A DNA stretch of 64,000 nucleotides from NCBI GenBank assembly GCA_019637395.1, contig JAHBVR010000005.1, positions 65,312 through 129,311 of the forward strand, in the 5' to 3' direction. The stretch is from Vulcanimicrobiota bacterium. Its GTDB lineage: Bacteria > Vulcanimicrobiota > Xenobia > Xenobiales > JADMJV01. The notes beneath the pieces are model-generated. The model was not told where the DNA came from. It saw nothing but the letters and a program-made list of their open reading frames with translations, and searched no databases. Positions 2 through 26,316 of this stretch are shown here, in pieces (the stretch's first letter is position 1; every line of letters starts with the position of its first letter). Both the position numbers and the translations under genes were made by a program.

Positions 2-697
2 GTTTTCAGCGGTCAGGAGCAGCGGTTTTGGTACGAGACTCTGAAGTTCTACGTTGACTCCGTTCCTGTTCAGTGCTCCGACTGCCGTCGTGAAGCGCGA
101 GCAAGGAAGCGTGCCCAGAAAACCTTGCAAACGCTGCTTCCCCTTCCTCCTCGAGCGGATTGGCGACAGTGTGAGCAGGCGGCCCGAGCGGCCGCACTGG
201 TTGGCGGGTCGAAGGCCCTCGAGTATTGGCGCCGCGCGAAAAATCTATGTGGCGACCCCGAAGAAAGGTTGCGCCTGGAGTCGGAGATCGCTGCATTCAA
301 ACCGCTGCCTGCGCTGCAGGTTCGGAGGGACAGGCTGCTGGTGGAACAGTTGGAGCTGCATTATCGTCGTGAACCGGTGACGAACATCCTGTCGGACGAG
401 GACCGGACCAGCATCTTGAAAGCTCCGGGGTTTCCAAAGAGCAAAAGCAAGCTTGTGGCGCGCATAGAGGGGATGTGGGTCCGCCCCCATCCGGACCTGC
501 AGGACCGGCGGCAACTGGCCTACTTGCATGGCGAAAACATTTGCCCGAATATGCCGCCTCACACGCCCAGGGTCCTCATCGACACAGAGACAGGAGTCTT
601 GATCTACTTGCCTCACTCCGGGACGCGCGGGCAGACGGGGCACCACCGGCACGGAAACAAGATCTTTGGCCCTCCCGGACCGCTGCCATGGCTCTGA
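2..697 (+). CDS. hypothetical protein, 5' partial. The reading frame is open back to the window start. It has a CxxC pair near the N-terminal portion (CSDCRR).
   Basis: ORF 125..697 extends in frame without a stop back to position 2. No recognisable domain. Confidence 0.35.
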   Translation, partial: VFSGQEQRFWYETLKFYVDSVPVQCSDCRREARARKRAQKTLQTLLPLPPRADWRQCEQAARAAALVGGSKALEYWRRAKNLCGDPEERLRLESEIAAFKPLPALQVRRDRLLVEQLELHYRREPVTNILSDEDRTSILKAPGFPKSKSKLVARIEGMWVRPHPDLQDRRQLAYLHGENICPNMPPHTPRVLIDTETGVLIYLPHSGTRGQTGHHRHGNKIFGPPGPLPWL

Positions 698-7306: not shown

Positions 7307-8089
7307 TCACTCTCGGCTCTTGCTTTTACTACCGTTCTTTCCACTCGAACTATCCGAAGGCGCCCGGGGCTTCCGGCCGGAGTCCCCCTCGACCACCAGG
7401 CAGTGAGCATTGTCCCGCAGGCGATCCACCGTTGCCGAGGCAAGTAGCGGGTTGGAAAAGGCCTGGCCCCACTCGTTAAAGTCGAGGTTGCTGGTGATGA
7501 TGATGGGATTGCGCTCGTGCCGCTCCGCGATCAGCTCGTGGAAGTCCTCATCCGACGGTGGCCGGAGCGCTTTCAGGCCGAAATCGTCGAGAATGAGTAA
7601 GTCTGCCCGGGTCAGGTTCGCGAACCGGCGCTCGTAACTGCCGTCAGCACGGCCGGCGTTCAAGTGGGCGAGCATCTTCGTCGTGCTCAGATAGAGCACG
7701 TCGTAGCCACGGCGGCAGGCAACGTGGCCCAGCGCCTGGGCTAAGTGACTCTTGCCAACGCCGCTCGGGCCCACGATCAACACGTTCGACCTCTCCTCGA
7801 TGAAGGAGCAGGTTGCAAGGTCGTAGATCAGGGCCCGGTTCAGGCGTGGTCGGGCGTCGAAGTCAAAACCTTCCAGTGTTTTGTTGGACCGGAAACTGGC
7901 CCGCCGGAGCCGGGTCGTCAGCTTCTTTTGTTCCCGACGATCTACCTCATCGGTGGCAAGCTGCATCAGGAACTCGGTGTAGCTAAGCTTTTGGTCAATG
8001 GCCTGTCGGTTCCGCACTTCCAAGGTGTCCAGGATGCCCGACAGGCGCAGTTGCTTAAGTTTGGTGGTTAACTGAGGGGTCAGATTCAT
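7307..8089 (-). CDS. istB: IS21-family transposition helper ATPase IstB
   Basis: Walker A motif GPSGVGKSHLA, Walker B motif LLILDDFG, and an IstB-like C-terminus. Confidence 0.85.
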   Translation of the reverse strand: MNLTPQLTTKLKQLRLSGILDTLEVRNRQAIDQKLSYTEFLMQLATDEVDRREQKKLTTRLRRASFRSNKTLEGFDFDARPRLNRALIYDLATCSFIEERSNVLIVGPSGVGKSHLAQALGHVACRRGYDVLYLSTTKMLAHLNAGRADGSYERRFANLTRADLLILDDFGLKALRPPSDEDFHELIAERHERNPIIITSNLDFNEWGQAFSNPLLASATVDRLRDNAHCLVVEGDSGRKPRAPSDSSSGKNGSKSKSRE

Positions 8090-8199
8090 CTTAAATTCTC
8101 CTTTATTTTACTAGATGCGATAACGGCCGAAACAGGGCCGCCGAGGTGGCGACCTGGCCCGAGCTCGGCTCGGGCGGTTGCTTGGAATCACGGCGCCCT

Positions 8200-9774
8200 C
8201 TAGTTCATCGAGGGGCTAAACAGGTCAGACATCGGCCGTGCGAAGCGCGGAGAGAGCGCGGCAAAGGGCAGCTCAAGCTGGCCGGTTTCCGATTCGTCCA
8301 TCGGCAACTGGTCAAGCCCGTGCTCCAGAATTTTCTTTACTGTGTGATAGCGAATGTTGTCGTAAGCAATCGCACGGCGGCAAGCGTTGTTCAGTCTCTT
8401 CGCGCCGTATTTTTTGGCCAACCGCAAGACACCCTGAGCAGCGCGTAGACGGTCCAGGACTTTATCACCAAGGAGTTCGCTGATGAACTCGACGCAAAAG
8501 TCGCCGATCCTTGTAGCCTGCTCCTTGCACCATGCCGGGGTCTGGTTCAGGTAGGCCATCTTCTCCTCAGGCAGGTGGTCGTTGTTGGTCAGCCATTGGC
8601 CGGATCGTGTTGCGCGTGGGTGGCAGGCGACCATCTCCAAATTCTGGAACAACATGACGGTAGAATCGCCAGCCCTCAAGTCCAACTGTTTGCCCACCAA
8701 TCGAAAGGGCACCGAGTAATACGACTTCTGGAAAATCGCGTGGCAGTCAGGGTGGATTTTGGCAGTGGACCAGACGGCCAACTCCACCCTCTCCGCCGGC
8801 AGTGGCTTGAGTGCTGGCTTCTCTTCCTCCGCGAACACGGTTAATGGAACTAGATGGGTCGTTCCGTGGGTTCGATTTCCGGCTTCCCCCAGGACCCACT
8901 CCATCAACTGGCGATTGGCATCGCCGATGCCGGTGAACGTCCGAGGACTTTTGAGGAACGAGCGCTTTACATAGCGCACCCCAGACTCCACTGTTCCTTT
9001 GTGTTCCGGAGTTTTGGCCACACACGGTGATACCTGAAAGCCGTAACCGCGGGCAAACTCCCCGTAGCTCCTTTGGACCTGCGGGTCGTAGTAACAGGCC
9101 CGGATGATGGCGGCCTTCAGGTTGTCCGGCATGATCTTGGTCGGCACTCCGCCCCAGAACTCAAACGCGTTGCGATGGCACCGGAGCCAGGTGCTGGCAG
9201 TCTGGTCCCAGACGATTTCGGCATACTGGTGGCGACTGTGTGTCAGTGTCATCACGAAGAAATGGGTCTTGCGCGGCTTTCCGGTCACCGGGTCAGGTAA
9301 AATAGGGCCAGAGCCAAAATCGACCTGGGCAACTTCGCCAGGGGAGAAGTGCAGCCGTACGACCGGGTCAGGAATCGTCGCGGAAAGCTTCCGGACGAAG
9401 CGTCGCACCGAAGATGGGCTGCCAGTGTAGCCGTGGTTTTTGTTGAGATAGCTCCAGATCGTCTGGGCTTCCATCTTCTGCTTAACCCAGCCAAGAACTA
9501 ACTCACGATACGGCTCAACCTTTGAGGCTTGGGCTTGGCGAGGCTTTCTCCTGGCCTCCAGGGCAGCCAGAATCTCTTCCTGACTCGGCAACTCGGCTTC
9601 CGGATCCAGCCAGTTCATTTCCAGCGCAAGTCGTCGAATCTCATCGATCTTGCGCGGGCCCATCCGCAGGGCTGCCTGAATGAGTCGGCGGCCTTCGTTG
9701 CGCCGCAGACGGACGATTACATCCTGATAATGAAACACGTTGAGTCTCCTTCTTGCCACAAATGTGACCTCCAA
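8200..9774 (-). CDS. istA: IS21-family transposase IstA
   Basis: N-terminal HTH region, then the DDE/integrase core (HFSPGEVAQVDFG...THFFVMTLTHSRHQY), about 520 aa. Confidence 0.85.
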   Translation of the reverse strand: MEVTFVARRRLNVFHYQDVIVRLRRNEGRRLIQAALRMGPRKIDEIRRLALEMNWLDPEAELPSQEEILAALEARRKPRQAQASKVEPYRELVLGWVKQKMEAQTIWSYLNKNHGYTGSPSSVRRFVRKLSATIPDPVVRLHFSPGEVAQVDFGSGPILPDPVTGKPRKTHFFVMTLTHSRHQYAEIVWDQTASTWLRCHRNAFEFWGGVPTKIMPDNLKAAIIRACYYDPQVQRSYGEFARGYGFQVSPCVAKTPEHKGTVESGVRYVKRSFLKSPRTFTGIGDANRQLMEWVLGEAGNRTHGTTHLVPLTVFAEEEKPALKPLPAERVELAVWSTAKIHPDCHAIFQKSYYSVPFRLVGKQLDLRAGDSTVMLFQNLEMVACHPRATRSGQWLTNNDHLPEEKMAYLNQTPAWCKEQATRIGDFCVEFISELLGDKVLDRLRAAQGVLRLAKKYGAKRLNNACRRAIAYDNIRYHTVKKILEHGLDQLPMDESETGQLELPFAALSPRFARPMSDLFSPSMN

Positions 9775-10271: not shown

Positions 10272-10306
10272 CCAGAACAAAGAAAAGCGGGCTCGCGGGC
10301 CCGCTT
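10272..10306 (-). terminator. rho-independent terminator downstream of the RHS-immunity operon
   Basis: Stem AAGCGGGC/GCCCGCTT with a 6-nt loop, followed on the minus strand by TTTTCTTTGTT. Confidence 0.55.
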
Positions 10307-10798: not shown

Positions 10799-13700
10799 TA
10801 ACTATAATTAACTTCACCGCGCTTGCCCTTGTTGGCACAGCCCTCAAATTTAAGAGCCTGCTTGATCTTCATTTTCTTCGCAGAATCAGTTGTGTTTTTC
10901 AGCAGTTCTCGCAGCCATTTGCAAATGTCTTCCTTCGTGGCGCATCTACCCAGAGTCGTCCGAGCTAAGCGCGTATACTCATTGGACTCCTTGCTACCAT
11001 TCTGAATGTCAGTAGATTGCCTCCTGCGCTCCTGAGCTTGCTTCATTCTCTCCCTCAGGTACTGGTCCTGAGACTTCGGAGTCGGCAACCATTCTGGAAC
11101 ATGTCTGCCGTATCTGTAAAGCCATTCCGAGTACCCTTCCTGAGAATTCCGCAATGCGTCTGCTTCAAATTCATACTCTCCAGCCGAGCTGGGAGGCTGA
11201 TAAGGCCAACGATTACGGTCGGTTCCTACCGGCACAGAGAAACCTCCGGGACCATCTGGGAGAGTGCCTCTCGTGTTAGGATTCCAGGGAACTGGCGCGG
11301 GCTCTGGCAAGCCCCCGCCGCCAAGATTGACGCTATCTGGCATCGACATTGGCGACCTGGGCAAAGCGCCGCCCATACCTCCACCAGGCAAAATGACTGG
11401 ACTGCCACCGCCAGGCCCAAGCCCAGTCGGGTCACTGAGAGACGCGGGGCTGTTGCCGGTGTAGACATATAGATTCGCGCCGGCATCGTGACCAACCGGG
11501 TCACGGGATAGAAAACGCATCAATCGAGGGTCGTAGTGTCTTGCGCGCATATATACGAAGCCTGTCAAGGGATCTTTGCGACATGCAAATCCCCCAACGA
11601 AGCTGTAGCACATACCGCCCGGCACGTTATCAAAGCTGCTTGCGAGGGCGTTACCCCAAGCATCTAGCTCGAATCTGGCAACGATGTCGCCTTGGTCATC
11701 GGTCACTAGACGCACTGAGCCCAGTGCGTCCGTGTGCACATCGTATCGATCCTCACCGCGAATGAAACTCAGCAATTCGCCTTCTGGAGCACAGTAAGTG
11801 GTCGTCAAAACGCCGTCGGTCTCGCGGATCACATCGACATTTTCCCACAAGAATGCCACCACTTGTGAGCCATCATCTCGAGAGAGCATTCGCCCGAAAT
11901 GGTCGTATGCATACGATACATCGACACTTCCTGGCCCCTGCACGCGGGTCAAAAAGTTACCATCCAGCGTGTCCCACGTATAAGTCCACGTGTCCACACC
12001 GTTGGTCTTACCCGTCATATTACCGTTGAGGTCGTAAGAGAACGTCCAAGTATCGCCACCTACGTCCTGTCGCATCACCTGATTCAACGAATTCAGGCGC
12101 TCCCCAGAACTCCAACCAGCGTCGTCGCGGACGTCTTCGCTGACGCCCAGGTCGTCGATAGTCGTGATGCGCAGAATGTTCCCCGCCTCATCATATCGGG
12201 TCCGTAAGACTCGCGAACCGGCATCACTACCGGCGTTGCAGGTCAGCTGGATGTCAGACAGAGTCGGCGTATCCGTCCCGTTGCCGGTCAGCACCGCCCG
12301 CACCATCGCATAGCGGCCCGTCTTGCCCGAGGGCAAGGCCTCGCCGGCGGGAGTCGTAAAATTCCCACCCCCGGTCGGCCCGAACCAGGCCGGAGGACTC
12401 ACAAAGTCCTCGAACTCGGCGTAGTCGTCGGCGACGCAGACCTCCAGCTCCACGTCGCAGCCGGGGGGCAGGTCCTCCACCCATGAGACCCTATCCCATG
12501 ACACGGATCGACCCGCATCATATATAGGACTGGTGTAGACTCCTTCGGTCGCCAGAGCGTTACCGTTCCGCTGCAGGTTGCTGAAGTGGAAGCTCCCTGC
12601 GGTCTGCTTCCCGTAGAAGTTAATCACCAGATTCATGTCATAGGTCGGGGAAGACCCGGTCGTGAACAGCGTGCTCCAGGTCGAAGCCCCCTGTTCGCGG
12701 TGGTAACCCTTAAAGATGTCTCCGGTCCGGGTCAGGCGAATCTGGCCGGCCGGGAACAGGCTGGTGTACCCGAAGGCCGAGCTCGAGCCCGGTAGCACCT
12801 GGCGGAAAGCTACGTTGTTGGCGGAGTTGGTCGACTTGGTGATCTCGATGGCGAACCACGCATAAATTCCGGGATAAGAGGGGGCCTCCAGGGTGTTCGG
12901 GGTCACCGCCAACCGGGCCAACATTCGGCCTCCTGAGTGAGTGAAGGCCGGATCCACCCCGAGGTAGTCCAGAGAGACGTCAAAGTCTCCGCTCAACACC
13001 TCGTTGTGATAGAGGTCCACGTTGTGATCTACCGGGTAGATGTTTCTTTCCGGGTAGCCCCCCCAGGAAGCGCTGTGAAACTCGTTGTCGATGCCCACGT
13101 GGTTGTCGACGGGAGCCCGGTGCAAGTGGCTCTGGTTGTGCAGTGCTCTTGGATAGGTGTAATGCAAGCCGTCCTTATGGCGCAGCTCGCATCCCACCGT
13201 GTCCATCTCGCCGGGAGCGCCTTGCTGGGTCAGTTGGCGACTCTCCACCCTCCAACGCTGCAAATTCAGCTCCGGGCCGGCAAAGTTGTCGTTGAACGGC
13301 AGCAGCTTCATGGTCTGCGTATTGTCGTCGAACTCCAGGCGCTGCCATTGGCCCTGTCTCCACACCGAGGGCTGATGAATGCAGAAGCGGTTATGGCTCT
13401 CCTCCACCAGGCGTCCGGCGCTATCGGTCAGGTAGGTGAAGGTGTCCAGATCGGTCTGCTGGGCGATGCGATCGCCCGCCAGACTGTACCCGTAGCGCAT
13501 CTCCATAAGAGGCTCGCTGCCCTGCACCACCTTGCTCAGCAATTTGCCCACGATGTCATACGACATCAGGTCGGTGAGCGAATTGTTGTGGCTGATCTGG
13601 GTGCAACGCCCGTCCGCATCATATTGCATGGAGGTGGTGTCTGCGTTGGCGTCCTCCACCGTCAGCAAGCGGCCCACGTCGTCTCGGCCCAGGCTGGGCA

Positions 13701-16700
13701 CGCTCCAAATGACCTCATCGCCCCCGTAGCGGGATGAACCGTAGCGAGCCACACCATAGAAGGCTCCCTCTTTCAGGCTCATCCTCTGGCCCGTTTCGTT
13801 GTATTCCGAAACCAGGCTGACCTGGTCGGCATACTGCTGGCCAATCAGGCGGTTTAGCGCATCGTACCGATAGTTCCAACCATTTCCACTACGCTCCACA
13901 GTGGATAGCAGGTTGCCCACCTTGTCGTAAGTCAGTGCTACCGTAGTTGTGTCCGGATACGTGATCCGTTCCAGGCGATGCAGCTCATCGTAAGCATAGA
14001 CGCGCTCCTGAGCCAGGTTGTCCTCATAGCCGGTCAGGTCTCCCGCCGCGCTATACGCGAACGATTCGGTGGTGTTATCCGGATAGAGGATGGTCTTGAG
14101 GCGGTGCAGGGCGTCCCACTCAAATTCGGTGTCCTGGTCCACTCCTTGCGATCGGAGGCGGAACAGCACCAGATCCATCTTTTCATCGTATTCGAAAAAC
14201 AGCTCGTTCCCCAGGCTGTCGGCCACGCGAATCACCCGATCCAGAGTATCAAACTCGCGCAGAATCGTCCGCCCGTCTGGGTCACGCGTCAAAAACGCTC
14301 GGCCCAGCCGGTCGTATTCCGTGCGCTGGCGGGCTCCGTCCGGGAAACAGACCTCACGCAGGTTCTCGCCGTCGAACTCAAAGCAAGTGCTCAGACGCTG
14401 TAGTTGCAGATTTTTGGCTCCCAGCGGCGCACTGCCCGAAGATAGCTTGAGCCGCGCCGAACCCAGTCCGGGCCGGCGCAACGAGGCCTGGATGTCACCG
14501 GGAACGTCCAGTCGGCTGCGCGGCACCTGCTCCCAATCCTGGCTGGTCGGCGCGTAGTCCTCGCCTTCCACGGTGTCCGCCAAAGCCGTGTGGGTGTTGG
14601 ATGGATAGTCTTTGTGCACTCGATACTGAAACTCCATGCGGGCTTCGGTGGTGCCGCTGGTGCCGTCTTCCTTGCGAACCAGGAAATGGGCAATATAGCG
14701 GCCGCCTGCACTGAGGGGAGTATTCTTCTGCTCCCAGGTATGCACCGAAGAAGTCAGCGGAAGATAAGCCTGACCGTTGGCCTCCACCCCGCGGTTGGCG
14801 CTTGCGTTGGGCGTCCAGTAGCGAGGCACGATTTCTCCCCAAGGATCTTCCCAACTATCCACGGCATAAGGTTTGCCTTCCTGGCCGCTCGGATTGTAGA
14901 GGACGTTCTTGGCGCCCTCCAATACGATGTCGTCCAGCTCTTCCTGGTTTCCGTTAGGCGAGGTCACACCCGTCACTCGGCCCAGAGAATCCAGAGCGTA
15001 GCGAAGCTTGGCCTGGTCGGCGTATTCCGTCTCGATCAACTGGTTGGCGCCGTCGTAGCGGAAGTTGGTGACCTTGCCGCGGACATCGGTGACCGTTTCC
15101 ACCTCTCCCGAATTGCGATAGGTCATCAAAGTGGTCTGTTCCAGCGCGTCGGTGATTTTCCACAAGCGTTGGTGCTTGTAGGCAAAGGCCGTCACCCGAC
15201 CTTCCTGGTCCTCGCTTTCGGTCAGACGCCCGCCGGCATCGTAGGTGCGGAAGCTCGAGTTGCCCGCCGCATCCTCTACTTCGATGACCCGGTTGCGGTC
15301 ATCAAAAGTAAACAAGGTCGTGCGCATGTCGGCATCGGTCACGCTGGTCACATTGCCGTTCAGGTCGTAGACGAAAGCCGTGGTGCCTCCCAGCGGGTCC
15401 TCCACGCTGGTCAGGTTCTTGTAGGCGTCTTCGTAGTAATAGAGAGTAGGATTGGTCTGGCCAGGCTCCAGCGAGCTGGTCAGAGTGCCGTCCAGTTCAT
15501 CGTACTCCTTGGTCCAGGTATTCCCGGACCCATCCACCACGCCGATGAGTTGGCCCGCCTCGTTATAGGCCATTCGCGTGGTGCGATTCTCATAGGGGTC
15601 GAAGGCAAGGGCCGAGAGCACGGCATCGCCCACCACGCTCAAGTCAAAATCAACTCCGTCCTCCACCTGCGTGGCATTGTTTCCACGCGCGCGAATCTCG
15701 ACCAGAATGTCGCCCTCGCCGGAGCGCACCGGGAAGGTTGCCCAGCAACCGCCGGCATTGTTGGTTATGCGGAAAGATTGGGTTCCCAAAGAGTCGGTGA
15801 CCAGCATCTCGACATCGTAGCCCAACTGTTCGTTGTATTGCATGGGCACATCGGAGTGCGGCGCGATGTCGGTGGCGCAGGTATACAGCGACAGGTTGAA
15901 GTCGGTCTCTTCTTCCATCTCCAGGGTGAACTGGAAGCGACGGTAGGGGACATCTTCCTCATCCAGCGCCGAGCGCCAGTAGCCCTGGGTCGACTTGATC
16001 CTTCCTTCGTCCGCGTAACGCAAGTTACGGGGGTCTCGGTTGTGAAAGTCGTCGATCAGGTCGAGCTCGGTGATCACCGGCTCCACATCGCCCACGCCCT
16101 TGCTGACGGCGGAAATGTAAGCCGGTAGAGAAGCCACGTCGGCACTGCCGGTGGCACCGCACAGCAAATGCCCATCCTTGCCATAGTGACCCTGCCACTC
16201 GCCCTGAACAGAGAAATTGGCCCGCCCCGGAGTCACCGAGACCAGGCGGTCCTGTGAATACTCATAGTGAGTCATAAGGCCGTTTCCATCCAACGCTAAC
16301 ACCATATTTCCTCGCAGATCATAGACATAGCGTCGAAAGCGCATGTTGGCCTGGTCGCGGATACCCAGGTAGGCAACCCCATTTTCGAAATTCCAGGGAT
16401 CGAAATTCAGATGACCCGAGGCTTCGTAGAGCAATTGCGACTGGGGCCCCCAGAAGAAACGGCGTTGATGATTGTTCGGATCGATGATGCGGCGCAGGTT
16501 GCCGGTCAGGTCAAACACATACCGCCAGCTCTCCCCATTCGCGTCTGTGAGGGTGGTTCGATGAAAGGAGGCTATCTGGCCTGCTTCCGGGCCGGAAACA
16601 TACTCAAAATGAGGGTCGGCATAGGTATAGGTCAGAACTTGTCCCCGCGAATCGGTAACCGTCAGCAACTGGCCGGACGCTCCGAAGGTATAGGCCCACT

Positions 16701-17469: not shown

Positions 17470-18063
17470 TTACTGTTTCTTGTTGCTGGGACAGGTCGGT
17501 CCGCCGCGGGTTTTAGGAACCGGCCGGTTCTTGTAGATACCGAGGCGCTCCATATCGGTGGTCCCGATGCCGTGGTTACTGGGCAGGCCGCCCGCTAACC
17601 CGACTCCGCCAGCGCCGACCGAACCCGAGCTGCGCAGCAGTCCGCCGCCAAACCCGGGGGGCAGCAGGGGCGCAATCCAGGCCAGGTCGTCGATGAAATA
17701 GGGCGATGCCCGCTTGATTTGAGGGCTCGCCGAGTAATCATGGTAAGAACGGCCCGTTTCCTGACCGCCCACCGGCACGCCGCCGCAAGCGCCATTGCTG
17801 CCGCCCGCCGCCACCGCACTGGCTCCGCTGAGCGAAGCTCCGCCGGCGCCAGCCGGTCCACCGCCCGGGCCGGCGGCTCCACCGCACAAACTGGCGGTGC
17901 CGCCGCTGGAAGCCAGAGACTGTTGGCCCATCACCAGCAGGCGATTGGCCTGTTGGCTGTAGAGCACGCTTCCAACTGAACCATTCAGCCCGTCCGTCAC
18001 AAAAGGTGTATAAACTGCCCTGGCATTCACCAATTGGGCTATTTTAGGATGTAAAAGGAACAT
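17470..18063 (-). CDS. glycine-rich repeat protein (197 aa, 3 Cys), candidate substrate or partner of the adjacent radical SAM/SPASM enzyme
   Basis: ATG sits 4 nt after the radical SAM stop, with a GGAGGAGG RBS. Composition is GG(A/S/P)-rich (GGAAGPGGGPAGAGGASLSGASAVAAGGSNGACGG). It ends 18 nt before the RHS start. Confidence 0.55.
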   Translation of the reverse strand: MFLLHPKIAQLVNARAVYTPFVTDGLNGSVGSVLYSQQANRLLVMGQQSLASSGGTASLCGGAAGPGGGPAGAGGASLSGASAVAAGGSNGACGGVPVGGQETGRSYHDYSASPQIKRASPYFIDDLAWIAPLLPPGFGGGLLRSSGSVGAGGVGLAGGLPSNHGIGTTDMERLGIYKNRPVPKTRGGPTCPSNKKQ

Positions 18064-18067
18064 ACAT

Positions 18068-19300
18068 TTAAACCTCCTCCGAGATAGGTCGCGCCTCCTG
18101 AAACATCAGGGGCATTTCTTGTTGAGATAGGACCGTCGCGAGAAACTGCGGGTCCCCCCGAAGCTCCTGGTAGATGCGGTCGACCTGTAGGACCAGCTCC
18201 CGATTCAGGAGGCACTGGTTGGGATGAACCCCGTTCAAACCCAGACCGGCCTCCAGGGGAATCACGCGACAGCCGCCCGCGCATACGGTGCGGGCGATGC
18301 AGGTGGCGCAATCGGGGATCTGCGCCCGCGACAGGTGGACATAGTCCCAGCGTCGCGGAGGCAGACCAAGCTGGCGCCCGGCCACGCCGAATCGCTCGTG
18401 TTTCCGATAGAGATAGCGATGGCAGGGCAGAATGTTGCCTGCCGTGTCAAAGGCGAGCAGAGAAGTGCCCAGCGGGCAGGCCTTGGCCGGGCGCTCCTCC
18501 GTGCCGTAACGCAGGTGGTATTGGAGCAAACAGCTCCAGTAGTGGTGTAAAGCCGCAATCTTGCCGGCCCGAAACTCCGAGATGAACCAGTCAGCCAGGC
18601 GCTCAGACTGCATCCGCAGCTCCTCATGGTGCTGGCTCCAATCGGCCTCGACGACCGGCGCCAGCAAGATCCAACCCGCCCCCAGCTCCTGAGCGGCCAG
18701 CACCTTATCCAGCAGGTTCAGAGAACCAGGATGAAAGGTCATGCGGATGCTGGAGCTGGGACTCCAGGAAATCAGCTTGTTCAGATTGCGGCGCAGGTGG
18801 CCCCAGGAGTTACCCCCCGAAACCTTGGGCCTGAAATGGTGACTGGCTTCGTCCCCATCCAGACTGATCAGCAACTGCACCTCGCCTTCTTGCACAAAGC
18901 GACGAACCGACTCACCAGCCAGGGTTCCGTTGGTGGTCACTCCCAGAACGACCCGGTCCGCCCTCGGCCGAGTCCGCAAGTAACCCAACAAATCCAGCAG
19001 CAGCTCGCTGCGCAACAACGGCTCGCCCCCGAAGAAGTTGAGCCCTATGCACTCCTGGCCGGAAACCTCCGGCTGCAGGCAGTAGTCCACCACCTTCTTA
19101 GCCGTCTCGAAGGTCATGTGGCGGGGCTGCTTTTTGACGAAGCAATAGGTGCAGCGCAAATTGCACTCCTCGGTCACATAGACCATGAACGTAGTGACGG
19201 GCACCAAAGGCCGGCTCTCACGAACCGGCAAAGACATAAGCACAGTCAGACCCTCCTTAAAGTAGCGCCAGGCAGACGGCTTTGACGGCCATCCAGGCAT
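18068..19300 (-). CDS. radical SAM / SPASM-domain enzyme (peptide-modifying or maturase type)
   Basis: CNLRCTYC (CxxxCxxC) near the N-terminus. GGEPLL motif. A C-terminal Cys cluster CATCIARTVCAGGCRV is typical of SPASM auxiliary clusters. Confidence 0.8.
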   Translation of the reverse strand: MPGWPSKPSAWRYFKEGLTVLMSLPVRESRPLVPVTTFMVYVTEECNLRCTYCFVKKQPRHMTFETAKKVVDYCLQPEVSGQECIGLNFFGGEPLLRSELLLDLLGYLRTRPRADRVVLGVTTNGTLAGESVRRFVQEGEVQLLISLDGDEASHHFRPKVSGGNSWGHLRRNLNKLISWSPSSSIRMTFHPGSLNLLDKVLAAQELGAGWILLAPVVEADWSQHHEELRMQSERLADWFISEFRAGKIAALHHYWSCLLQYHLRYGTEERPAKACPLGTSLLAFDTAGNILPCHRYLYRKHERFGVAGRQLGLPPRRWDYVHLSRAQIPDCATCIARTVCAGGCRVIPLEAGLGLNGVHPNQCLLNRELVLQVDRIYQELRGDPQFLATVLSQQEMPLMFQEARPISEEV

Positions 19301-19601
19301 AAAAGCAACGTTGTGGCGGCAACCCGCCCAGGTCGCGAACGACCTGCTCGACCGTCAGCTCCTGGTCCGCCCTGCGCCCCACCAATCGCTCGTAGAGGTA
19401 GCCTCCACAGGCGATGGCGGGCACACAACGGGGACAAGAGAACGCCAGGGCTTTCACGATGCCGTGTGCGTCGATTTCCAGTTGTAGTTGAAAGTAGTGG
19501 CCCTGTTCCGCGCTTCCCACCCTACTTTGATGAGTCGGAGCGTCCAGCGAACCGAAGCCTCGAGCATTGTCGAAGTAGCGGCGGGTCTGCGGGGAAAACA
19601 T
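19257..19601 (-). CDS. IscU/NifU-N-terminal-like domain protein with altered cluster ligands
   Basis: It aligns over its length with IscU (NxRxxGSLD ... AIA ... PP..C motifs). The first ligand Cys (CGD) and the His are replaced; two Cys are retained. Confidence 0.55.
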   Translation of the reverse strand: MFSPQTRRYFDNARGFGSLDAPTHQSRVGSAEQGHYFQLQLEIDAHGIVKALAFSCPRCVPAIACGGYLYERLVGRRADQELTVEQVVRDLGGLPPQRCFYAWMAVKAVCLALL

Positions 19602-19603
19602 TA

Positions 19604-19948
19604 CTAAAAAGGTAGTATCTCGAGGATGAGTAGTAGTATTTTACGGATCTCCTCCGCCTGGAACTCAGCCTTCTGCCCCTTCAGTTGCTGCAATCTCTCG
19701 ATTACCTCGGGCTTGCGGGGATCTGGGACGAAGACCGGGGCTTCGACCTCTTCTGGTTCCGGCTCGGGTTCCGGCTCGACAATTTCATATCCGCCCGCAT
19801 AGTAAGCGGCTTCTACGAATTCGTTGGCCGAGGGCGCCGGAACGTCTACTGTATAGCGATGCTGTTCTTTTTCAGCGGAGAACTGTTTCAAGGCCTCGTC
19901 AAAATCAAAGCCCAGTTTATCAAAAATGACTCGTTCGATTTTCAACAT
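19604..19948 (-). CDS. hypothetical acidic protein (114 aa) with an EPEPEPEPEE tract
   Basis: ORF tightly packed between the fibre gene and the NifU-like gene. Confidence 0.4.
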   Translation of the reverse strand: MLKIERVIFDKLGFDFDEALKQFSAEKEQHRYTVDVPAPSANEFVEAAYYAGGYEIVEPEPEPEPEEVEAPVFVPDPRKPEVIERLQQLKGQKAEFQAEEIRKILLLILEILPF

Positions 19949-19950
19949 GA

Positions 19951-21036
19951 TTACACTCCTGCATAAATGATGTAGTTCAGGACCATGGTGGGCTGAACGT
20001 TGTTATGAGATCCTCCACCACCGGTAGAGTTGCTGGAAGCGCCAGAACTAAAGTTCTGCATGACGTTGTTAGCCTGCGGTGCCACATAGGCTTGGAAATA
20101 GATGGGATTCCAAGGCAAAGTATGGCTATGACTGGGAATCTCTGACGTAATCAGCGTGTGAGATTGCGAACCCCCTGACTGGCCCATCGTCGTGCTCGTC
20201 AGCCGGGTGCTCAATCTCGCGGCGTTCGAGCCCCCCATATTGTCAAGACCGGCAACCACTCGGCCGCGGAGATCGGGAATTCCGAAAGTGCCCGCTCCCG
20301 ATCCGAAGGTCGTGCCGATGATCGAATAAAGAGAAGCGTAAGTTGCCGTGCTGACCAATTGGCCATAGCACATCAGCCATCCACTCGGAGCGGTTACGCC
20401 CGCGAACGGGATCACGGAGCCAATCGGGCCGATGGAACCACTGGCACCTGTGGGTCCGGTGGCGCCCGCAGGTCCCGTTGCTCCGGTTGCTCCATTTGAG
20501 CCAGGGCCACCAGTTGCACCAGTGGCGCCCGCAGGGCCTGTTGCACCGGTCGCTCCATTGGAGCCAGGGCTACCGGTTGCTCCAGTAGCACCGGTCGCGC
20601 CAGTTGCACCCGCCGCGCCCGCCGGCCCGACACCCCCCAGCATCTCGAAGCGACCGCCGCTCGCGTCGTTATAAACGGCGGCTACCATTTGATTGGCCAG
20701 AATATCTCCCGAGGAGAGGGCGCTTCCGCCCGCTTTCGTGAGAGATTTTGCCGTCAGGGCGCCGCCGGGACCGACCACCTGCAAGGTGGAAGCCCCGGTA
20801 TTGGCGTTGGCCGCCTTGAAAACCACCAACATGCCCTTCTTGTAGGCCGTGAACTGATTCTGGTTGTCAGGAGAACCGTCGAAGTTGACTTGATAGGCGT
20901 CAGCCGAGCCGACGTCATCGCGGTAGAAAGCCTGGCCGTCCTCCAGGTCGGCCAGAACCGGGAATAGTTGGGCTATGTGCTCGGCCTCGATTACATCGCC
21001 CGTATTGATTGTATTGTCTGATAATGGACTGGACAT
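19951..21036 (-). CDS. collagen-like (GxT/GAT repeat) phage tail-collar domain fibre protein
   Basis: Gly-X-Y tract [31 protein letters not shown]... is followed by [49 protein letters not shown]..., the phage tail-collar signature. AAGGAA RBS before the ATG at 21036. Confidence 0.75.
20412..20640. repeat. tandem 9-bp-periodic GC-rich DNA repeats encoding the collagen-like G-A-T tract
   Basis: Repeated GCACCGGT / GCGCCAGT / GCTCCAGT units are visible. Confidence 0.6.
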
Positions 21037-21163
21037 TTGGATTCCTTTCGGTTGCTCCCGAGGCAGCACGAAGCCAGACCCGGTGCGAATGAGATTTTTA
21101 GAACTAGAAAATGGGTCTACAAGGAGTCGGGGAGCTCAGGGGGGCTCCCGGCTACTTTCGGGC

Positions 21164-22261
21164 CTACAGAAGGGCATGCTGGCGCCTCCCTTCGCAGGTT
21201 AAGCAATGAAGCAGATTGTTTTGCAGTCGCTGCCGGTCCATTTCGGGCAGGGCAGCTTCCTGCAAAAGTTTCTCCGTGCGCTCTCGCGCCTGGCCAAAAC
21301 GCCCGGTATAAAACTCCGCCACAGCCAGTTCATCCTGCGCCCGCCACCGGTAGGCGGGTTCTTCTAAAAAGAGCCCCTCCACCGGCATTTTCAGCTCGGC
21401 CGCCCTGCCGGCGAAAAGGTGGGCCAGATTCCATTGGCCGTGCTCCCGATAAAACTGAGCCAGCTCGGTCAGCGCTTCGGCTCGATAGGGATTCAACTGG
21501 TAAGCAAAGAGCAGTTCCGCCGGCACCTGAGTCGGATTTTGCAGGCGTTTCAGCAGCCGTGCCCGCTCCAGATGAGCCACATAGCGCTCCTCCACCCAGC
21601 CCTCCAGCCGGCAACGGCGCTCATAAGCTTCGGCCGCCTCCGGCAGGAGACCGGCATCGCGATAACTTTGCGCCAGATAAAACACATGGCGGGGCTCATC
21701 GGGCTCGGCTACCAGGGCTTTCTCGAGCAGCCGCGCGTCGTCCAGATATTTCTGAGGATTGCGAGACCGGGCGCCCTCCCCAGCGCTTACGTGATATTCG
21801 AGCCCCGGAAGATACCCGGGAACCGTGGCTTCCGGGCAATCCGCATACTCGTGAACCACTCCCTTATAACGCCAGGCCAAAGCAGTGCGGAAAAGCTGGG
21901 GACGGTAATAACGTACCTCTCCAAAGTGCACCCGAAGCGAATACCAATCCGCCTGCAGCTCCGGCGTTTTAAGTTCATGCCTTTCGAGCCGATCATCCGC
22001 GTCCACCACCAGGTGGTAGTCGCCCCGCCCCCGGTTCAGCTCAAAGGCCTCACTGCGATTCTCGGCAAAATTGCGCCAGGGACGGTGGTGCAGTTGGCCC
22101 GGTAAGTGGCTCAATACCGACTCCACAAGGGCCGGAGTATCATCGCTCGAGCCCGTGTCCACCACGGTCCAGCCGTCCAACAACGGCAGCACCGACCGGA
22201 GACAGCGCTCGATCACGGCGGATTCATCTTTTACAATCATGCATAAACTAATGGTCGACAT
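21164..22261 (-). CDS. family-2 glycosyltransferase with C-terminal TPR repeats
   Basis: N-terminal SLCMIVKDES...VVDTGSSDDT (GT2 DxD region). C-terminal TPR-like helices. Confidence 0.7.
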   Translation of the reverse strand: MSTISLCMIVKDESAVIERCLRSVLPLLDGWTVVDTGSSDDTPALVESVLSHLPGQLHHRPWRNFAENRSEAFELNRGRGDYHLVVDADDRLERHELKTPELQADWYSLRVHFGEVRYYRPQLFRTALAWRYKGVVHEYADCPEATVPGYLPGLEYHVSAGEGARSRNPQKYLDDARLLEKALVAEPDEPRHVFYLAQSYRDAGLLPEAAEAYERRCRLEGWVEERYVAHLERARLLKRLQNPTQVPAELLFAYQLNPYRAEALTELAQFYREHGQWNLAHLFAGRAAELKMPVEGLFLEEPAYRWRAQDELAVAEFYTGRFGQARERTEKLLQEAALPEMDRQRLQNNLLHCLTCEGRRQHALL

Positions 22262-22426: not shown

Positions 22427-23101
22427 CTACCATCGGCTTCTATACCCCCTTACATCTACATGACAAAATCCGTCCAGCGGATAGAAACCAACGCCACCGT
22501 GGTCCCCAATCACCGCCTCACAAACCTTAAGCAGGGCTTCGGTGGAAATACCCGCTGCCTGAATGTCGGCCGCCAGCCCGTCGATATGAGTACTGTTGCT
22601 TGCCGCACCTTTTAGTGAGGCGTTATAGGCCGGCGGTCTATAAGCCGAGTTTATCGTGATCGGCGCACCACCCAGTTGGGTGCGGATCATCTCCAGTCGC
22701 CGCACCAACTCCGGCGACACACGCAAGAATGCGTAGGAGCTGTCGTGACACATGAATTCCCCCGCCGTGAAGTGTTCGCTGAGCCGGTCCGATGGTTTCG
22801 CCGCCAGCAGCGGCGCGGCCGTGTAGGCGCCGGTGGTGCCATACCGAGCCGCTTCGGCCTCGGACAGCACTGCTTTGGGAATCGACAGGCCGCTGGGGTA
22901 TTTCACTCCTTCGCCGGCGCCGGAAGCTCCCGGCCTGGGACCCTCGGGGAGACCCAGGAAGAACTTCTGCCGCGCGTCGTCTCGCCCGACACGCAGACCC
23001 AACTGTTCGGCCACCGTCATCAGCAACGGCAGTTGGGATTCTTCAATCTCGATCGGGCGCCGCCAATCTTCCGGGGGCGCAAACACTCGCCACTTATTCA
23101 T
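22427..23101 (-). CDS. peptidase M15-family (D-Ala-D-Ala carboxypeptidase / endolysin-like) protein
   Basis: SNSTHIDGLAADI and FCHVDVRG motifs (HxxxxxxD ... H zinc site), preceded by HFTAGEF. Confidence 0.7.
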   Translation of the reverse strand: MNKWRVFAPPEDWRRPIEIEESQLPLLMTVAEQLGLRVGRDDARQKFFLGLPEGPRPGASGAGEGVKYPSGLSIPKAVLSEAEAARYGTTGAYTAAPLLAAKPSDRLSEHFTAGEFMCHDSSYAFLRVSPELVRRLEMIRTQLGGAPITINSAYRPPAYNASLKGAASNSTHIDGLAADIQAAGISTEALLKVCEAVIGDHGGVGFYPLDGFCHVDVRGYRSRW

Positions 23102-23408
23102 CTTTGGAACCTCCTTTCACGGTTTTGCCGCGTAAAATGCGCAATAATTCATCGGTCGATCCGTGCGTCTCTATATTTCTGCCGCGACAGGTAGCGTCGT
23201 GGTAAATAAGAATTATGGAAAGACGTTCTAGAGCCTCCGCTACCTCCCGCAATCCCCGCTCGGAGGCCTCCCGTTCGCGCTGCAAATCCTGCCGGAATTG
23301 CTCCGTGAGCGTGGGTATCGTCTTTGAGAAGGTTTGTAATACGAGCCAGGCCACCAGCGCGAAAGAGGTAGCCTCGATGGCCAGGCCTTTGAGCATCTCT
23401 GCTTCCAT
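23094..23408 (-). CDS. small single-TM protein, possible holin
   Basis: Contains a single predicted TM segment (GLAIEATSFALVAWLVLQTF). Confidence 0.3.
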   Translation of the reverse strand: MEAEMLKGLAIEATSFALVAWLVLQTFSKTIPTLTEQFRQDLQREREASERGLREVAEALERLSIILIYHDATCRGRNIETHGSTDELLRILRGKTVKGGSKDE

Positions 23409-23675: not shown

Positions 23676-23903
23676 TTATTCCTCTTCATGCAGAATGTAG
23701 AGGTCATGAATCGTGCAGTCGAGTGCATCAGCCAACTTCTTGACCGTCGCCGGATGTGGCTTCACTTTGCAATTTTCATAGCAACTGATTTGTTTTTGGC
23801 TTACACCGCTCGTATCCGCGACACCGGACTGGGATAATCCCTTCTGGCGGCGGCACCACAGCAATCCCCGAACATAATCGTTGCCCTTGTTTACTCCCTT
23901 CAT
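23676..23903 (-). CDS. XRE-family helix-turn-helix transcriptional regulator
   Basis: GLSQSGVADTSGVSQKQISCYENCKVKPHPATVKKLADAL is a Cro/C1-type HTH. Confidence 0.65.
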   Translation of the reverse strand: MKGVNKGNDYVRGLLWCRRQKGLSQSGVADTSGVSQKQISCYENCKVKPHPATVKKLADALDCTIHDLYILHEEE

Positions 23904-24159
23904 TGCTCCCCCCCGTTTCTCGATGATAACCCCTTTTGACCCGCCCATGTAATCCCTGATCCATCCCTAATCCATCCCTTTTCTATCCCTTTTCCATTCC
24001 TTTTCTGCACTATTTTCGAAAAGAGAGCCTGGCGAAGGTCCTCCGGACTTGCGACCCGACCTCCGAGATTTGTGTTTTTGTAAGTATCCATCTTGGTCTT
24101 CCTCCGGTTATGTTTAGCTTCTAACTGCAGAACATTTTTTAGGAGGCACAGGAAGCCGA

Positions 24160-24780
24160 TCATGCCATCCGCCCAAAAGCGAAGCGACGAGCCAATTCGT
24201 GAGCCAGAGGCAGCACCTGGATCAGGCGCCGGCGTGAGTCAACCTGGGCGAGGCCATACATTTCCAGCGCACTGGCCAGAAACCAGCCGGTCACGCGGAA
24301 CTCCTCAGCCAGGCGCGAGACCTGGCGCCAGCGCTGCTGCTGGGTCTCGGCCTGCAAGAGTTTGGCCATCGGGAAGCGCGTCACCAAATTTACGATAGGC
24401 ACCAGAAATACACGCGCGTAAACGCCGGCTTCTTTCTCCCAGATCCGCCGCTTGATGGTCTGCTCCAACATCTGGGCTAGATGCAAACGCACATGGCCCA
24501 GTTCGTGGGCCAGCGTTTCGTTCATCACGGCCGCGGCCGTCTCCGGTACGCGCAAGCGCTGGCGAAAATCCACCGGTAGTTTTAAGACTCGCTCCTCAGG
24601 GCAACACAGGCCCAGCAAGCTGGGATGCAGGTTCTCCACTCGCTGGATACGCCATTGGCAGTGCAAAATCGCCTCGCGCACCACCTGTGCCGGCACTCCG
24701 CCGCGCACCCCTTTTCGACGCAACGCCAGGAGCAGACGTTCACGGTCCTTCGCGAAATTATCCAGTAGTTGACTGTCCAT
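24160..24780 (-). CDS. ImmA/IrrE-family metallopeptidase (anti-repressor protease type)
   Basis: HELGHV (HExxH) motif in a ~200-aa protein adjacent to the XRE regulator. Confidence 0.6.
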   Translation of the reverse strand: MDSQLLDNFAKDRERLLLALRRKGVRGGVPAQVVREAILHCQWRIQRVENLHPSLLGLCCPEERVLKLPVDFRQRLRVPETAAAVMNETLAHELGHVRLHLAQMLEQTIKRRIWEKEAGVYARVFLVPIVNLVTRFPMAKLLQAETQQQRWRQVSRLAEEFRVTGWFLASALEMYGLAQVDSRRRLIQVLPLAHELARRFAFGRMA

Positions 24781-24935: not shown

Positions 24936-25140
24936 GAAAAAAATCTTCCCCTGGTTTTATCTTACAATCCCCCCATGAAACGCCTGAGTCTCTGTGGCTA
25001 ACGATACTTAATTTTTTTGTGGATTCGAGAGCTTATGAGACGCGGCTTAAGTCCTTGCCGGGGGAGAGCAAGTGATTCCCGCCGCCGCCGGCTACCGGTG
25101 TCAAGGGGATTTCCCGTCGTTCCCCAACTATGCACTGGCA

Positions 25141-26316
25141 ATGGCAGAGAAACTTTCCGACCTGGAGCGTTGGCTCCAACAGATGCAGGGCGAGGGGGAG
25201 CGCGATTCCTCCGGGCATTTCACGGTGGATGCCGGCTCACGCCTCGATCGCTACCGTAGCCTGCTCGAACTCAACCCCAGCCTGCCCTGGCTGCAGCTGA
25301 CGCAGTGGGCTCACCGGCAGCGGGCCGTCGCAATCGAGTTTCGCGTCCTGCGTGACGCGGTCGAATGGGTGGCCAGGGGGTTGCAATCTGACGAGGATTG
25401 GTGCGAGCGGCTCGGCCAGGTCAGCGGCGAGGATTCTCTGCTGCTCCTGCTGCACGCCTGGAAGCCACAGGCGATGCAGTTTGTTTGGACCCACCGCAAG
25501 GCCGGTTGGGCTTGGGCCTGGCCCGGGCCGGCTCAGGTCCAGACGCGCGCTGTGGAAGATTCCGTCCAGGGAGAAATGGTGGTTCGCCTGCAAATCAGCC
25601 TCACGCCTACCCAACGCCGCGACCTGCTCAGCGAATTTACCGCCCGCACTCACTTCGCGCCCATTCCTATGCGTATTGACGGGCGGCCGCATCCCAGCCG
25701 GCTCGACCTCACTTCGGCCCAGTCGCGTTCTTTCGGAGTAGCGGCTGACCTGGTCAGCGCTCGAACGCAGTCCGGGGCTGACTACTTCGCGGTCGTGCAT
25801 CCCGCCGCTCACGAGGCCCGCCTGACTTTGGTCAACGCCGGGCGCGCTACCTCCATGCATCAGGAGCCGGGAGAAGCGCCTCCCGGCAAAGTGGCCTGTT
25901 ATCACCTCCACCATCCCGAGTTGGCTGCCGCGACCTGCTCCAAGCACGAAATCGCTATCGACCTGGGCCAGCTTGGACTTCGTGACAGCGCGGATTTCCT
26001 GGACATGCCCCGGCGCTGGAGTGGCTGGAGTTTTCTGGGTATCCAGTTTATGGCTCAGACCTTGCGCCCCCTGCGGGCCCGTTCGCTCTACCTGCTCAGC
26101 GCCCATCCGGATAAGGGCACCGTCTTCATCATTCCCGTGCGCCAGGGTGTGAGCCTCAATCCCATCAGCACCAACGGTTCGCGCCGCGGCAGCACCACCA
26201 TCAGTATCTGCCCCGAGGGGCTCAAAACCGACCTCTCCGGCCTGCGCCTGGTGGAAGACGCCGCCTGTGGAGCCTGGCTTCAGGGCGTGGTCGACGCCAG
26301 CCGCCGCTGTTTATAG
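25141..26316 (+). CDS. hypothetical protein (~390 aa)
   Basis: Long ORF; the start is taken at MAEKLSD. No recognisable domain. Confidence 0.4.
   Translation: MAEKLSDLERWLQQMQGEGERDSSGHFTVDAGSRLDRYRSLLELNPSLPWLQLTQWAHRQRAVAIEFRVLRDAVEWVARGLQSDEDWCERLGQVSGEDSLLLLLHAWKPQAMQFVWTHRKAGWAWAWPGPAQVQTRAVEDSVQGEMVVRLQISLTPTQRRDLLSEFTARTHFAPIPMRIDGRPHPSRLDLTSAQSRSFGVAADLVSARTQSGADYFAVVHPAAHEARLTLVNAGRATSMHQEPGEAPPGKVACYHLHHPELAAATCSKHEIAIDLGQLGLRDSADFLDMPRRWSGWSFLGIQFMAQTLRPLRARSLYLLSAHPDKGTVFIIPVRQGVSLNPISTNGSRRGSTTISICPEGLKTDLSGLRLVEDAACGAWLQGVVDASRRCL

Follow-up and report, generated by a model that had tools for sequence, protein, structure and literature searches.

Radical S-adenosylmethionine (rSAM) enzymes of the SPASM type are known as maturases of peptides that are made on the ribosome and modified after translation (RiPPs) and of a few enzyme cofactors. 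For RHS and other polymorphic toxins, a trafficking domain and autoproteolysis are considered sufficient. Both kinds of protein are encoded together in the DNA analyzed here, a stretch of 64,000 nucleotides from a Vulcanimicrobiota bacterium (assembly GCA_019637395.1, contig JAHBVR010000005.1, positions 65,312 to 129,311), hereafter the window. Its minus strand carries genes for a phage-type fibre, an acidic EP-repeat protein and an IscU-like protein, followed by an rSAM/SPASM enzyme, a small glycine-rich protein, an RHS toxin and a candidate immunity protein. We propose that this is an rSAM-matured RHS toxin cassette, built of known kinds of components whose combination is newly described. 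A full-text literature search for rSAM enzymes with RHS or polymorphic toxins, and for Eremiobacterota with Rhs, returned no account of such a linkage.

Among maturases, the closest described systems are PapB and CteB, rSAM/SPASM enzymes that form Cys thioethers. They provide the best NCBIfam match and the closest structure for the enzyme of the window, share with it the CX3CX2C motif and the seven-Cys pattern, and are likewise encoded beside a small Cys-bearing protein. In contrast, the window's enzyme reaches about half of the family cutoffs and has no counterpart of the RiPP recognition element (RRE) region of CteB; the partner is a disordered glycine-rich protein of 110-205 aa and not a short Cys-repeat peptide, and an RHS toxin always accompanies the enzyme-partner pair. 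QhpD, which crosslinks QhpC of quinohemoprotein amine dehydrogenase, and the sulfatase maturases are precedents for a SPASM enzyme that matures a component of a protein machine encoded in the same operon, but amine dehydrogenase and sulfatase genes are absent here and the scores are far below cutoff. The original prediction had tentatively placed the pair in the GRRM class (TIGR04260/TIGR04261), in which an rSAM/SPASM enzyme also lies beside a glycine-rich protein. This assignment failed for both proteins, as TIGR04261 was not among the 25 best NCBIfam matches of the enzyme, and the glycine-rich protein does not match TIGR04260 and has no repeats. To our knowledge, GRRM has not been described as RHS-linked.

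Among toxins, the PAAR-Rhs effectors of the type VI secretion system (T6SS) have a homologous shell, a DUF6531 start, DPxGL, a variable C-terminal toxin and a downstream immunity gene, all of which are found here. However, there are no PAAR, VgrG or adaptor genes at the locus, and a 25-aa Cys-bearing peptide stands in for the trafficking region, the glycine-rich protein being the product of a separate gene (fused in one related locus, L006). As in the Tc toxins (TcB-TcC cocoon plus TcA), a large RHS cocoon, here without an obvious secretion signal of its own (judged by eye), is encoded with a separate targeting component. Here TcA is lacking, phage tail-fibre-like proteins stand in place of the targeting subunit, and the rSAM enzyme and glycine-rich protein are additional; we know of no Tc locus that carries such a maturase and glycine-rich protein. 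Several loci here also encode an endolysin- and holin-like pair, which may be comparable to the T10SS-type (type 10 secretion system) lysis cassette of Tc toxins, although that pair is not universal. Tailocin-like bacteriocins are similar in their lysis and fibre context, but no sheath or tube is encoded here.

A total of 33 related loci (designated L001 and so on) were retrieved, 24 of which had enough downstream DNA to be informative. In all 24, the RHS gene started 385-709 nt past the rSAM match, with rSAM identities of 31-81% to the window, and the RHS protein was collinear with that of the window and similar in size (~2,100-2,200 aa). A small glycine-rich, Cys-bearing ORF on the same strand lay between the two genes in every one of them, fused to the RHS gene in L006. 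The scan of GTDB genomes also yielded 79 generic rSAM/SPASM loci from other phyla, and RHS was found in none of these (0/79). The invariant core order is the rSAM/SPASM enzyme, a small disordered glycine-rich Cys-bearing protein, an RHS cocoon toxin of ~2,200 aa and an immunity gene, which bears out the neighbourhood conservation that the original prediction had proposed to check.

The upstream genes behaved differently from this core. Between the window and L091, the fibre, EP and IscU-like proteins were 77%, 63% and 79% identical, the rSAM enzyme 45% and the RHS toxin 36%, and similarity of the small protein was undetectable. Between the window and L002, the corresponding values were 74% for the IscU-like protein, 46% for the rSAM enzyme and 36% for the RHS toxin, again with no detectable similarity of the small protein. 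In both comparisons identity falls sharply at the junction of the IscU-like and rSAM genes (~19243-19257), from 74-79% upstream to 45-46% and 36% downstream. The fibre, EP and IscU-like genes were all absent in L001 and L007, where the rSAM, small protein and RHS genes were kept. The joining of the pair to an IscU-like protein, a fibre and an RHS toxin, which had been put forward as unprecedented, thus holds for the RHS toxin as part of the core, and not for the IscU-like protein and the fibre, which are, like the EP protein, frequent or occasional accessories. The rSAM enzyme, small protein and RHS toxin appear to be exchanged as one block by recombination, and not just at the C-terminal tip as in classical RHS displacement.

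Proteins P0122 and P0131 share the KF760 locus-tag prefix, and one metagenome-assembled genome (MAG) thus carries two cassettes; this source genome has two divergent copies, that of the window and an L001-like one, whose small proteins are 57% identical. In L092 (1-2222), the 3' end of an RHS gene is followed ~0.9 kb later by another rSAM gene, implying tandem cassettes.

The Radical_SAM family (PF04055) was matched by the enzyme with E 3.4e-14 and 53.8 bits (cutoff 29.5). The CX3CX2C motif is formed by C27, C31 and C34, and seven C-terminal Cys (C256, C274, C312, C315, C321, C325 and C344) follow the SPASM pattern; all of these were invariant in an alignment of 18 sequences. The SPASM assignment rests on this Cys pattern and on alignment through the SPASM part of CteB and anaerobic sulfatase maturase, and no match to the Pfam SPASM model was reported in the Pfam scan. 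The predicted rSAM/SPASM enzyme is genuine and belongs to the peptide-maturase type, and by the SPASM pattern it should hold three Fe-S clusters.

In NCBIfam the enzyme gave 72 matches, of which the best 25 were inspected (the 25th with E 1.7e-10 and 40 bits). These 25 are all other peptide maturases; TIGR04261 was not among them, and any match to it would be weaker than 40 bits. The best match was the PapB ranthipeptide maturase (NF047865), aligned over nearly the whole model (E 1e-52), with 179.5 bits against a curated cutoff of 340; at about half of this cutoff the enzyme does not belong to the PapB family. The second match was a nif11-peptide rSAM model (139.6 bits, below cutoff) and the third QhpD (TIGR03906, 125.2 bits against 453). 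The SCIFF maturase (TIGR03974) reached 116.4 bits against 425, and the anaerobic sulfatase maturase (TIGR03942) 55.6 bits against 349. Membership in these last three families was rejected, as the scores are far under the cutoffs and no SCIFF peptide, QhpC or sulfatase gene was found at the locus in the ORF list and family scans. The nearest solved structure was CteB (5WGG). The alignment begins at CteB residue 97, and the first ~96 residues of CteB, its peptide-recognition RRE domain, have no counterpart in the enzyme. PADLOC gave only generic viperin-core similarity of the rSAM domain, and none of the partners matched a defence system. By similarity the enzyme would work most like PapB, CteB and QhpD, but it is a member of none of these families.

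A protein search found ~116 close relatives of the enzyme (36-99% identity, at least 228 bits), followed by a sharp drop in score to generic rSAM enzymes. On sequence grounds, the enzyme founds a distinct, sharply delimited, RHS-linked family of ~116 proteins. Four named sources were found in this family, three Candidatus Eremiobacteraeota MAGs and the unclassified 'bacterium SCN 62-11'. The GTDB scan matched mostly generic rSAM motifs, with one true family member (L010) among the matches listed, and the taxonomic range is a lower bound.

The original prediction had paired the enzyme with a glycine-rich protein containing three Cys, and this pairing was supported. The ORF (197 aa, 20% Gly) is a real gene, because it has 24 homologues (43-99% identity, several of them independently annotated), a dN/dS of 0.23-0.25 and an equivalent ORF at the same slot in every related locus. 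The dN/dS values were obtained against two orthologues, with synonymous sites near saturation, and were 0.07-0.10 for the adjacent rSAM gene; the glycine-rich gene is under purifying selection. No match was found in Pfam, NCBIfam (TIGR04260 or any other model at E <= 0.01), PHROG or PADLOC. There is no tandem repeat in 17470-18063; the repeats of the locus lie in the collagen region of the fibre gene and in the EP tract.

An alignment of the window's small-protein subfamily (alignment A3) showed that a 55-aa N-terminus (MFLLHP..LN..Y.PF..DGL.G...QQ.NRL) and a non-repetitive Gly-rich block ('GGAAGPGGGPAGA...GGSNGA.GG.P.GGQE.GR') are kept, followed by a variable middle. S162, G165, M171 and C191 are invariant, C191 lying in 'TCP' with a basic tail after it. 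Within this subfamily the C-terminal Cys was never lost, while C60 and C93 were lost in divergent members. The AlphaFold2 model is mostly disordered (pLDDT 45, too low for a fold search), with helices at 6-17 and 29-52 (both weak) and at 171-177 (short, at the M171 motif).

The spacer ORFs of the related loci are all on the same strand, 110-205 aa long, with 13-35% Gly and 2-10 Cys, and where readable their start lies no more than ~20 nt past the rSAM stop. The other subfamilies display loose motifs ([VI]PG[LF]xGS near the N-terminus, P.G..Q..FG, and [DN]-x-M-x(3-5)-LN-x-C followed by more Cys), and their 2-10 Cys are clustered at the C-terminus. Searches with phmmer joined the small proteins of L004, L108, L101, L098, L102 and L010, and separately those of L002 and L091. 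In L006, the most distant locus, a segment rich in Gly, Cys and acidic residues (…PCEDCKDCKD…CC…) is an N-terminal extension of the RHS ORF itself. No other observation points as strongly as this fusion to the small protein being, in function, an N-terminal module of the toxin. In L008 (9174-9650), the small-protein slot is split over two frames, a 72-aa ORF and then a Cys-rich continuation. An assembly error or a true frameshift could account for this, and L009 contains the same contig sequence.

The RHS protein matched RHS_repeat (E 4.9e-71) over 11 stretches and DUF6531 at residues 26-98. It consists of a short conserved N-terminal peptide with Cys21, DUF6531, the shell, DPTGL near residue 2010 and a variable C-terminal toxin, and among solved structures it is closest to T6SS Rhs cores and teneurin-like proteins. 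RHS repeats, DPxGL, the variable C-terminus and an adjoining candidate immunity ORF are those of a polymorphic toxin. Judged from the sequence, it is a standard RHS shell without a recognisable N-terminal trafficking domain. Alignments to orthologues run from residue 1-9 to about 2010-2065, covering the whole shell, and the C-terminal toxin is not conserved. The 25-aa peptide ahead of DUF6531 has the consensus NPFP.P...DG[YF]Q..xG.C-x3-[DE].[VL]R[LV]..GN. Cys21 was present in 19 of 21 sequences of the N-terminal alignment and in 14 of 16 of the full-length alignment, and Asp or Glu occupied position +4 in 15 of the 19 Cys-bearing sequences (15/21 of all aligned). A word-indexed search with the N-terminal 161 aa recovered a single fragment.

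Pfam found nothing, even at E <= 1, in the C-terminal toxin or in two inserted regions of the RHS protein. These shell insertions lie at residues ~400-600 (nt ~15650-16250) and ~1430-1800 (nt ~12050-13160); the first begins at the invariant Cys431, and the second gives DUF1583 matches in L007 and L111. In L108 (821-6597), the RHS N-terminal ORF is only 517 aa long though similarity to the RHS protein of the window runs to residue 2013, and the gene is probably disrupted. The 123-aa ORF that starts on the RHS stop codon matched DUF4288 (E 2.4e-10, 41 bits against a cutoff of 27), and unrelated small ORFs occupy the same position in related loci.

It is somewhat probable, in our judgement, that these genes form a conserved Eremiobacterota cassette in which a dedicated rSAM maturase crosslinks the small protein, a detached N-terminal adaptor module of the RHS toxin, with an IscU-like Fe-S helper and release by lysis. 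The maturase would be related to the thioether-forming PapB, QhpD and CteB, and would most likely introduce one or a few Cys-to-carbon crosslinks into the small protein encoded 4 nt downstream, with the invariant C-terminal Cys (C191, 'TCP') as the probable sulfur donor. The original prediction had named either the glycine-rich protein or a structural protein of the locus as the substrate. Three features favour the former: the order of the genes, the invariance of the C-terminal Cys and the fusion in L006. The small protein may act as a detached N-terminal module of the RHS toxin; the N-terminus is where other RHS toxins (T6SS Rhs, Tc) carry their trafficking domain. It may link the cocoon to a delivery partner, which could be the co-encoded phage-type fibre, and the IscU-like protein probably helps to load the Fe-S clusters of the enzyme. 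The cassette would be phage-derived. Regulated lysis is the probable route of release, since no product has an obvious secretion signal (by eye) and an endolysin-like peptidase, a holin-like protein and XRE/ImmA regulators are found in several loci. Such a route is reasonable, as a T10SS-type lysis cassette is documented to release RHS-cocoon Tc toxins (PMC10847048). Of all this, the gene content, linkage, purifying selection, cofactor motifs and family relationships are shown by the sequences, whereas the chemistry, the choice of substrate, the adaptor role and release by lysis are inferred. A fuller version, which we consider rather unlikely, is that the enzyme crosslinks the disordered adaptor internally or covalently to the Cys peptide at the RHS N-terminus, and that the adaptor couples the cocoon to phage-derived receptor-binding fibres, giving a fibre-targeted RHS 'bacteriocin' released by regulated lysis.

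The main rival to the small protein as substrate is the RHS toxin itself, and we give this alternative a low though appreciable probability. The enzyme would modify Cys21, or C220 or C431, as QhpD or the sulfatase maturases act on whole proteins, and the small protein would be a chaperone or adaptor. The conserved N-terminal peptide is consistent with this, as its Cys-X3-Asp/Glu is the spacing of the PapB substrate. PapB links Cys to an Asp or Glu located C-terminal to that Cys (PMC12373016). Among the small proteins, Cys lies near Asp or Glu in some subfamilies and not in that of the window. In addition, C220 ('PEGC') and C431 were invariant in 16 of 16 sequences of this 2,200-aa protein, which has few other conserved Cys and none in the shell that is near-invariant, and the enzyme resembles protein-modifying SPASM enzymes in having no RRE. 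However, Gly replaces Cys21 in L110, whose RHS protein is intact, and in L108, and both of these loci keep the rSAM enzyme and small protein. C220 and C431 may be merely structural, and modification of the toxin would leave unexplained why a Cys-bearing ORF always directly follows the rSAM gene.

A self-contained GRRM-like RiPP pair, in which the rSAM enzyme and glycine-rich protein make a free peptide product and the RHS toxin is merely a co-inherited competition gene, seems quite improbable. The order of maturase then precursor with a 4-nt junction, the helical, leader-like conserved N-terminus with a Cys-containing C-terminus, and the similarity of the enzyme to RiPP maturases all fit such a pair. 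Against it, neither protein qualifies as GRRM, the core does not encode a protease, a transporter or an RRE, and 110-205 aa is long for RiPP precursors. The linkage to RHS in 24 of 24 loci and the L006 fusion are also hard to explain without a shared function.

It is very unlikely that the enzyme modifies a structural protein of the locus such as the fibre or the EP protein. Collagen-like and EP-rich proteins are plausible targets, and most loci with sufficient upstream DNA have fibre-like genes there. However, the core persists in L001 and L007 without the fibre, EP and IscU-like genes, the fibre C-termini are unrelated between loci, and the fibres of the window and L091 are 77% identical at only 45% identity of the enzymes. 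This modular swap (L091, L002) together with the absence in L001 and L007 led to the rejection of the fibre and EP protein as the conserved substrate, and this part of the predicted substrate choice was not upheld. A housekeeping SPASM enzyme such as a sulfatase maturase next to a spurious GC-rich frame, an outcome that the original prediction had itself named as fatal to it, has a negligible probability: the window of ~60% GC does yield many long spurious ORFs, but the anaerobic sulfatase maturase score is far under its cutoff with no sulfatase gene nearby, the neighbourhood is conserved, and the glycine-rich ORF has 24 homologues, a dN/dS of ~0.24 and a position and strand kept in every locus.

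Several points weigh against crosslinking of the small protein as an adaptor of the toxin. The chemistry is suggested by family similarity below cutoff (PapB 179.5 against 340 bits), no acceptor residue is conserved, and the lack of a counterpart of the CteB-type RRE leaves peptide recognition unexplained. The RHS toxin, having conserved Cys of its own (C21, C220 and C431), could be the true substrate. The equivalence of the small proteins across subfamilies is based on position, composition and loose motifs, not on proven homology. A hidden Markov model of the non-window small proteins, searched against all ORFs of the window, missed the glycine-rich protein (the best hit was noise, E > 0.04), and the A3 profile, searched against 1.84 billion cluster representatives, recovered only nine, all of its own subfamily. 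Since neither search bridges the subfamilies, no sequence homology is claimed across them. For delivery and release, L001 and L007 lack the fibre, L001 and L008 lack the lysis genes, and Pfam and PHROG gave no family match for the 104-aa holin-like protein.

The features of the cassette and its upstream region are listed in the table. All six minus-strand ORFs of the original prediction, their junctions and their ribosome-binding sites were found again from the ORF list and by reading the junctions, and the identities proposed for the collagen-like tail-collar fibre, EP-repeat, IscU/NifU-like, rSAM/SPASM and RHS proteins agree with Pfam and the sequences. The exception is the start of the rSAM gene. 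The ORF as mechanically listed (18068-19300) would overlap the IscU-like gene by 44 nt, and the GTG at 19243, 13 nt past the IscU-like stop and with AGGAGGG upstream, is favoured by the NCBI model P0001 (391 aa, 99% identical) and the N-termini of 17 homologues. The fibre stop lies 2 nt ahead of the EP-gene ATG, and the EP-gene stop 2 nt ahead of the IscU-like ATG. The glycine-rich ATG lies 4 nt past the rSAM stop with GGAGGAGG upstream, and the RHS ATG (17451) 18 nt past the glycine-rich stop with AAGGAG upstream. The RHS protein, small protein and fibre have no signal-peptide-like start, judged by eye only.

Table. Position, strand and supporting evidence of the features of the rSAM-RHS cassette and its upstream region in the window.
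Feature	Position	Strand	Evidence and remarks
Terminator-like GC-rich hairpin and T-tract	10285..10306	-	8-bp stem with 6 GC pairs, then TTCTTTGTT
Candidate immunity protein, 123 aa	10427..10798	-	Start overlaps RHS stop; DUF4288
RHS/YD-repeat polymorphic toxin, 2,217 aa	10798..17451	-	RHS_repeat, DUF6531
Gly-rich small protein, 197 aa	17470..18063	-	ORF, 24 homologues
rSAM/SPASM enzyme, 391 aa, GTG start	18068..19243	-	Pfam Radical_SAM, homologue N-termini
IscU/NifU-fold protein, 114 aa	19257..19601	-	Pfam NifU_N
Acidic EP-repeat protein, 114 aa	19604..19948	-	ORF translation
Phage-type fibre	19951-21069 as listed; 19951..21036 from the likelier ATG 21036 behind AAAGGA	-	ORF and Pfam
Family 2 glycosyltransferase (GT2) with tetratricopeptide (TPR) repeats	21164..22261	-	Glycos_transf_2, TPR; PHROG 13126 full length, E 2e-25
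M15 peptidase, endolysin-like	22427..23101	-	Peptidase_M15_3 E 7e-17; PHROG endolysin E 1.4e-24
104-aa protein, one N-terminal hydrophobic helix (by eye)	23094..23408	-	End overlaps M15 gene start
XRE-type helix-turn-helix (HTH) regulator	23676-23948	-	HTH_3 E 2e-11
ImmA/IrrE-like M78 metallopeptidase	24160-24780	-	Peptidase_M78 weak, E 0.0058; HELGH motif; PHROG metallo-protease E 7e-7

The IscU-like protein matched NifU_N (PF01592) with E 1.1e-10 and 42.2 bits (cutoff 22), and scored 30 bits against a cutoff of 192 for the IscU equivalog of NCBIfam. Aligned to IscU (1Q48), it has 'eqGH' where IscU has 'aCGD' and keeps the second and third Cys; other loci have 'SG[QR][FY]' at the first-Cys/Asp site. 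The protein thus has the fold of an IscU/NifU scaffold and not its canonical ligand set of three Cys and Asp, and was rejected as a canonical scaffold. In at least 15 related loci its gene immediately precedes the rSAM gene; it is absent in L001, L006 and L007, and does not co-vary with the rSAM/RHS block. The protein is probably a generic helper for the Fe-S supply of the enzyme rather than a specificity factor. The EP protein, with a tandem repeat at 19755-19778, was found only in the window and L091 and had no family match in Pfam, NCBIfam or PHROG.

The fibre (Collar E 7.7e-22, Collagen E 6.7e-10) is built of a conserved N-terminal domain, a collagen-like Gly-X-Y stretch and a tail-collar/Gp10_C-like tip. 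It gave 41 PHROG matches, and nearly all of the best 25 of these were tail or tail-fibre families. Fibre-like genes with a related N-terminus and different C-termini occur upstream in L091, L010, L097, L101, L102/L103, L006, L110 and L111; they are found ahead of the core in most loci where enough upstream DNA was available. Their C-termini are of several types, among them collagen plus tail collar and Gly-rich beta-helix-like.

Further upstream, the GT2-TPR gene is common to L091 only (86% identical); its PHROG match is a phage beta-1,4-glycosyltransferase, and its N-terminus has very weak similarity to the SunS family of peptide S-glycosyltransferases (18.8 bits against a cutoff of 350). L091, L110 and the locus of P0012 have homologues of the M15 peptidase upstream of the cassette, and L004 has a YkuD-domain protein instead. 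The 104-aa protein, 75% identical in L091, is possibly a holin- or spanin-like partner, and a weak Phage_holin_6_1 gene lies beside the M15 peptidase of the P0012 locus. The XRE and ImmA-like pair (23676..24780), which also occurs in L004 (YkuD, M78, HTH), would be a prophage-style switch.

The hairpin has the most G-C pairs (6) among the terminator-like sites of 10.4-21 kb, the others having 3 or 4, and is likely the end of the operon. An IS21-family element (7307-9774, minus strand; IstA transposase 8200-9774, IstB ATPase 7307-8089) lies directly downstream of it, and transposases also flank or interrupt the RHS genes of L006 (rve) and L111 (IS66), suggesting that the cassettes are located in mobile or recombination-prone regions. 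Just past the other end, on the plus strand (25072-26316), a 414-aa ORF without Pfam match is overlapped by a long antisense ORF (25237-26106), and its coding status is uncertain. An Rfam scan of the window found no RNA family.

These results suggest that this toxin system needs an enzymatic maturation step. If this is true, a post-translational maturation step would be added to the biology of RHS toxins, and long disordered proteins recognised without an RRE would be a new substrate class for thioether-type rSAM enzymes. Should the crosslinked adaptor and fibre-targeted version hold, this would be the first polymorphic-toxin system to depend on an rSAM enzyme for maturation. Eremiobacterota are an uncultured soil phylum. 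For this phylum without a cultured model, the cassette would hint at how RHS toxins are delivered from loci that have no recognisable T6SS or Tc partner.

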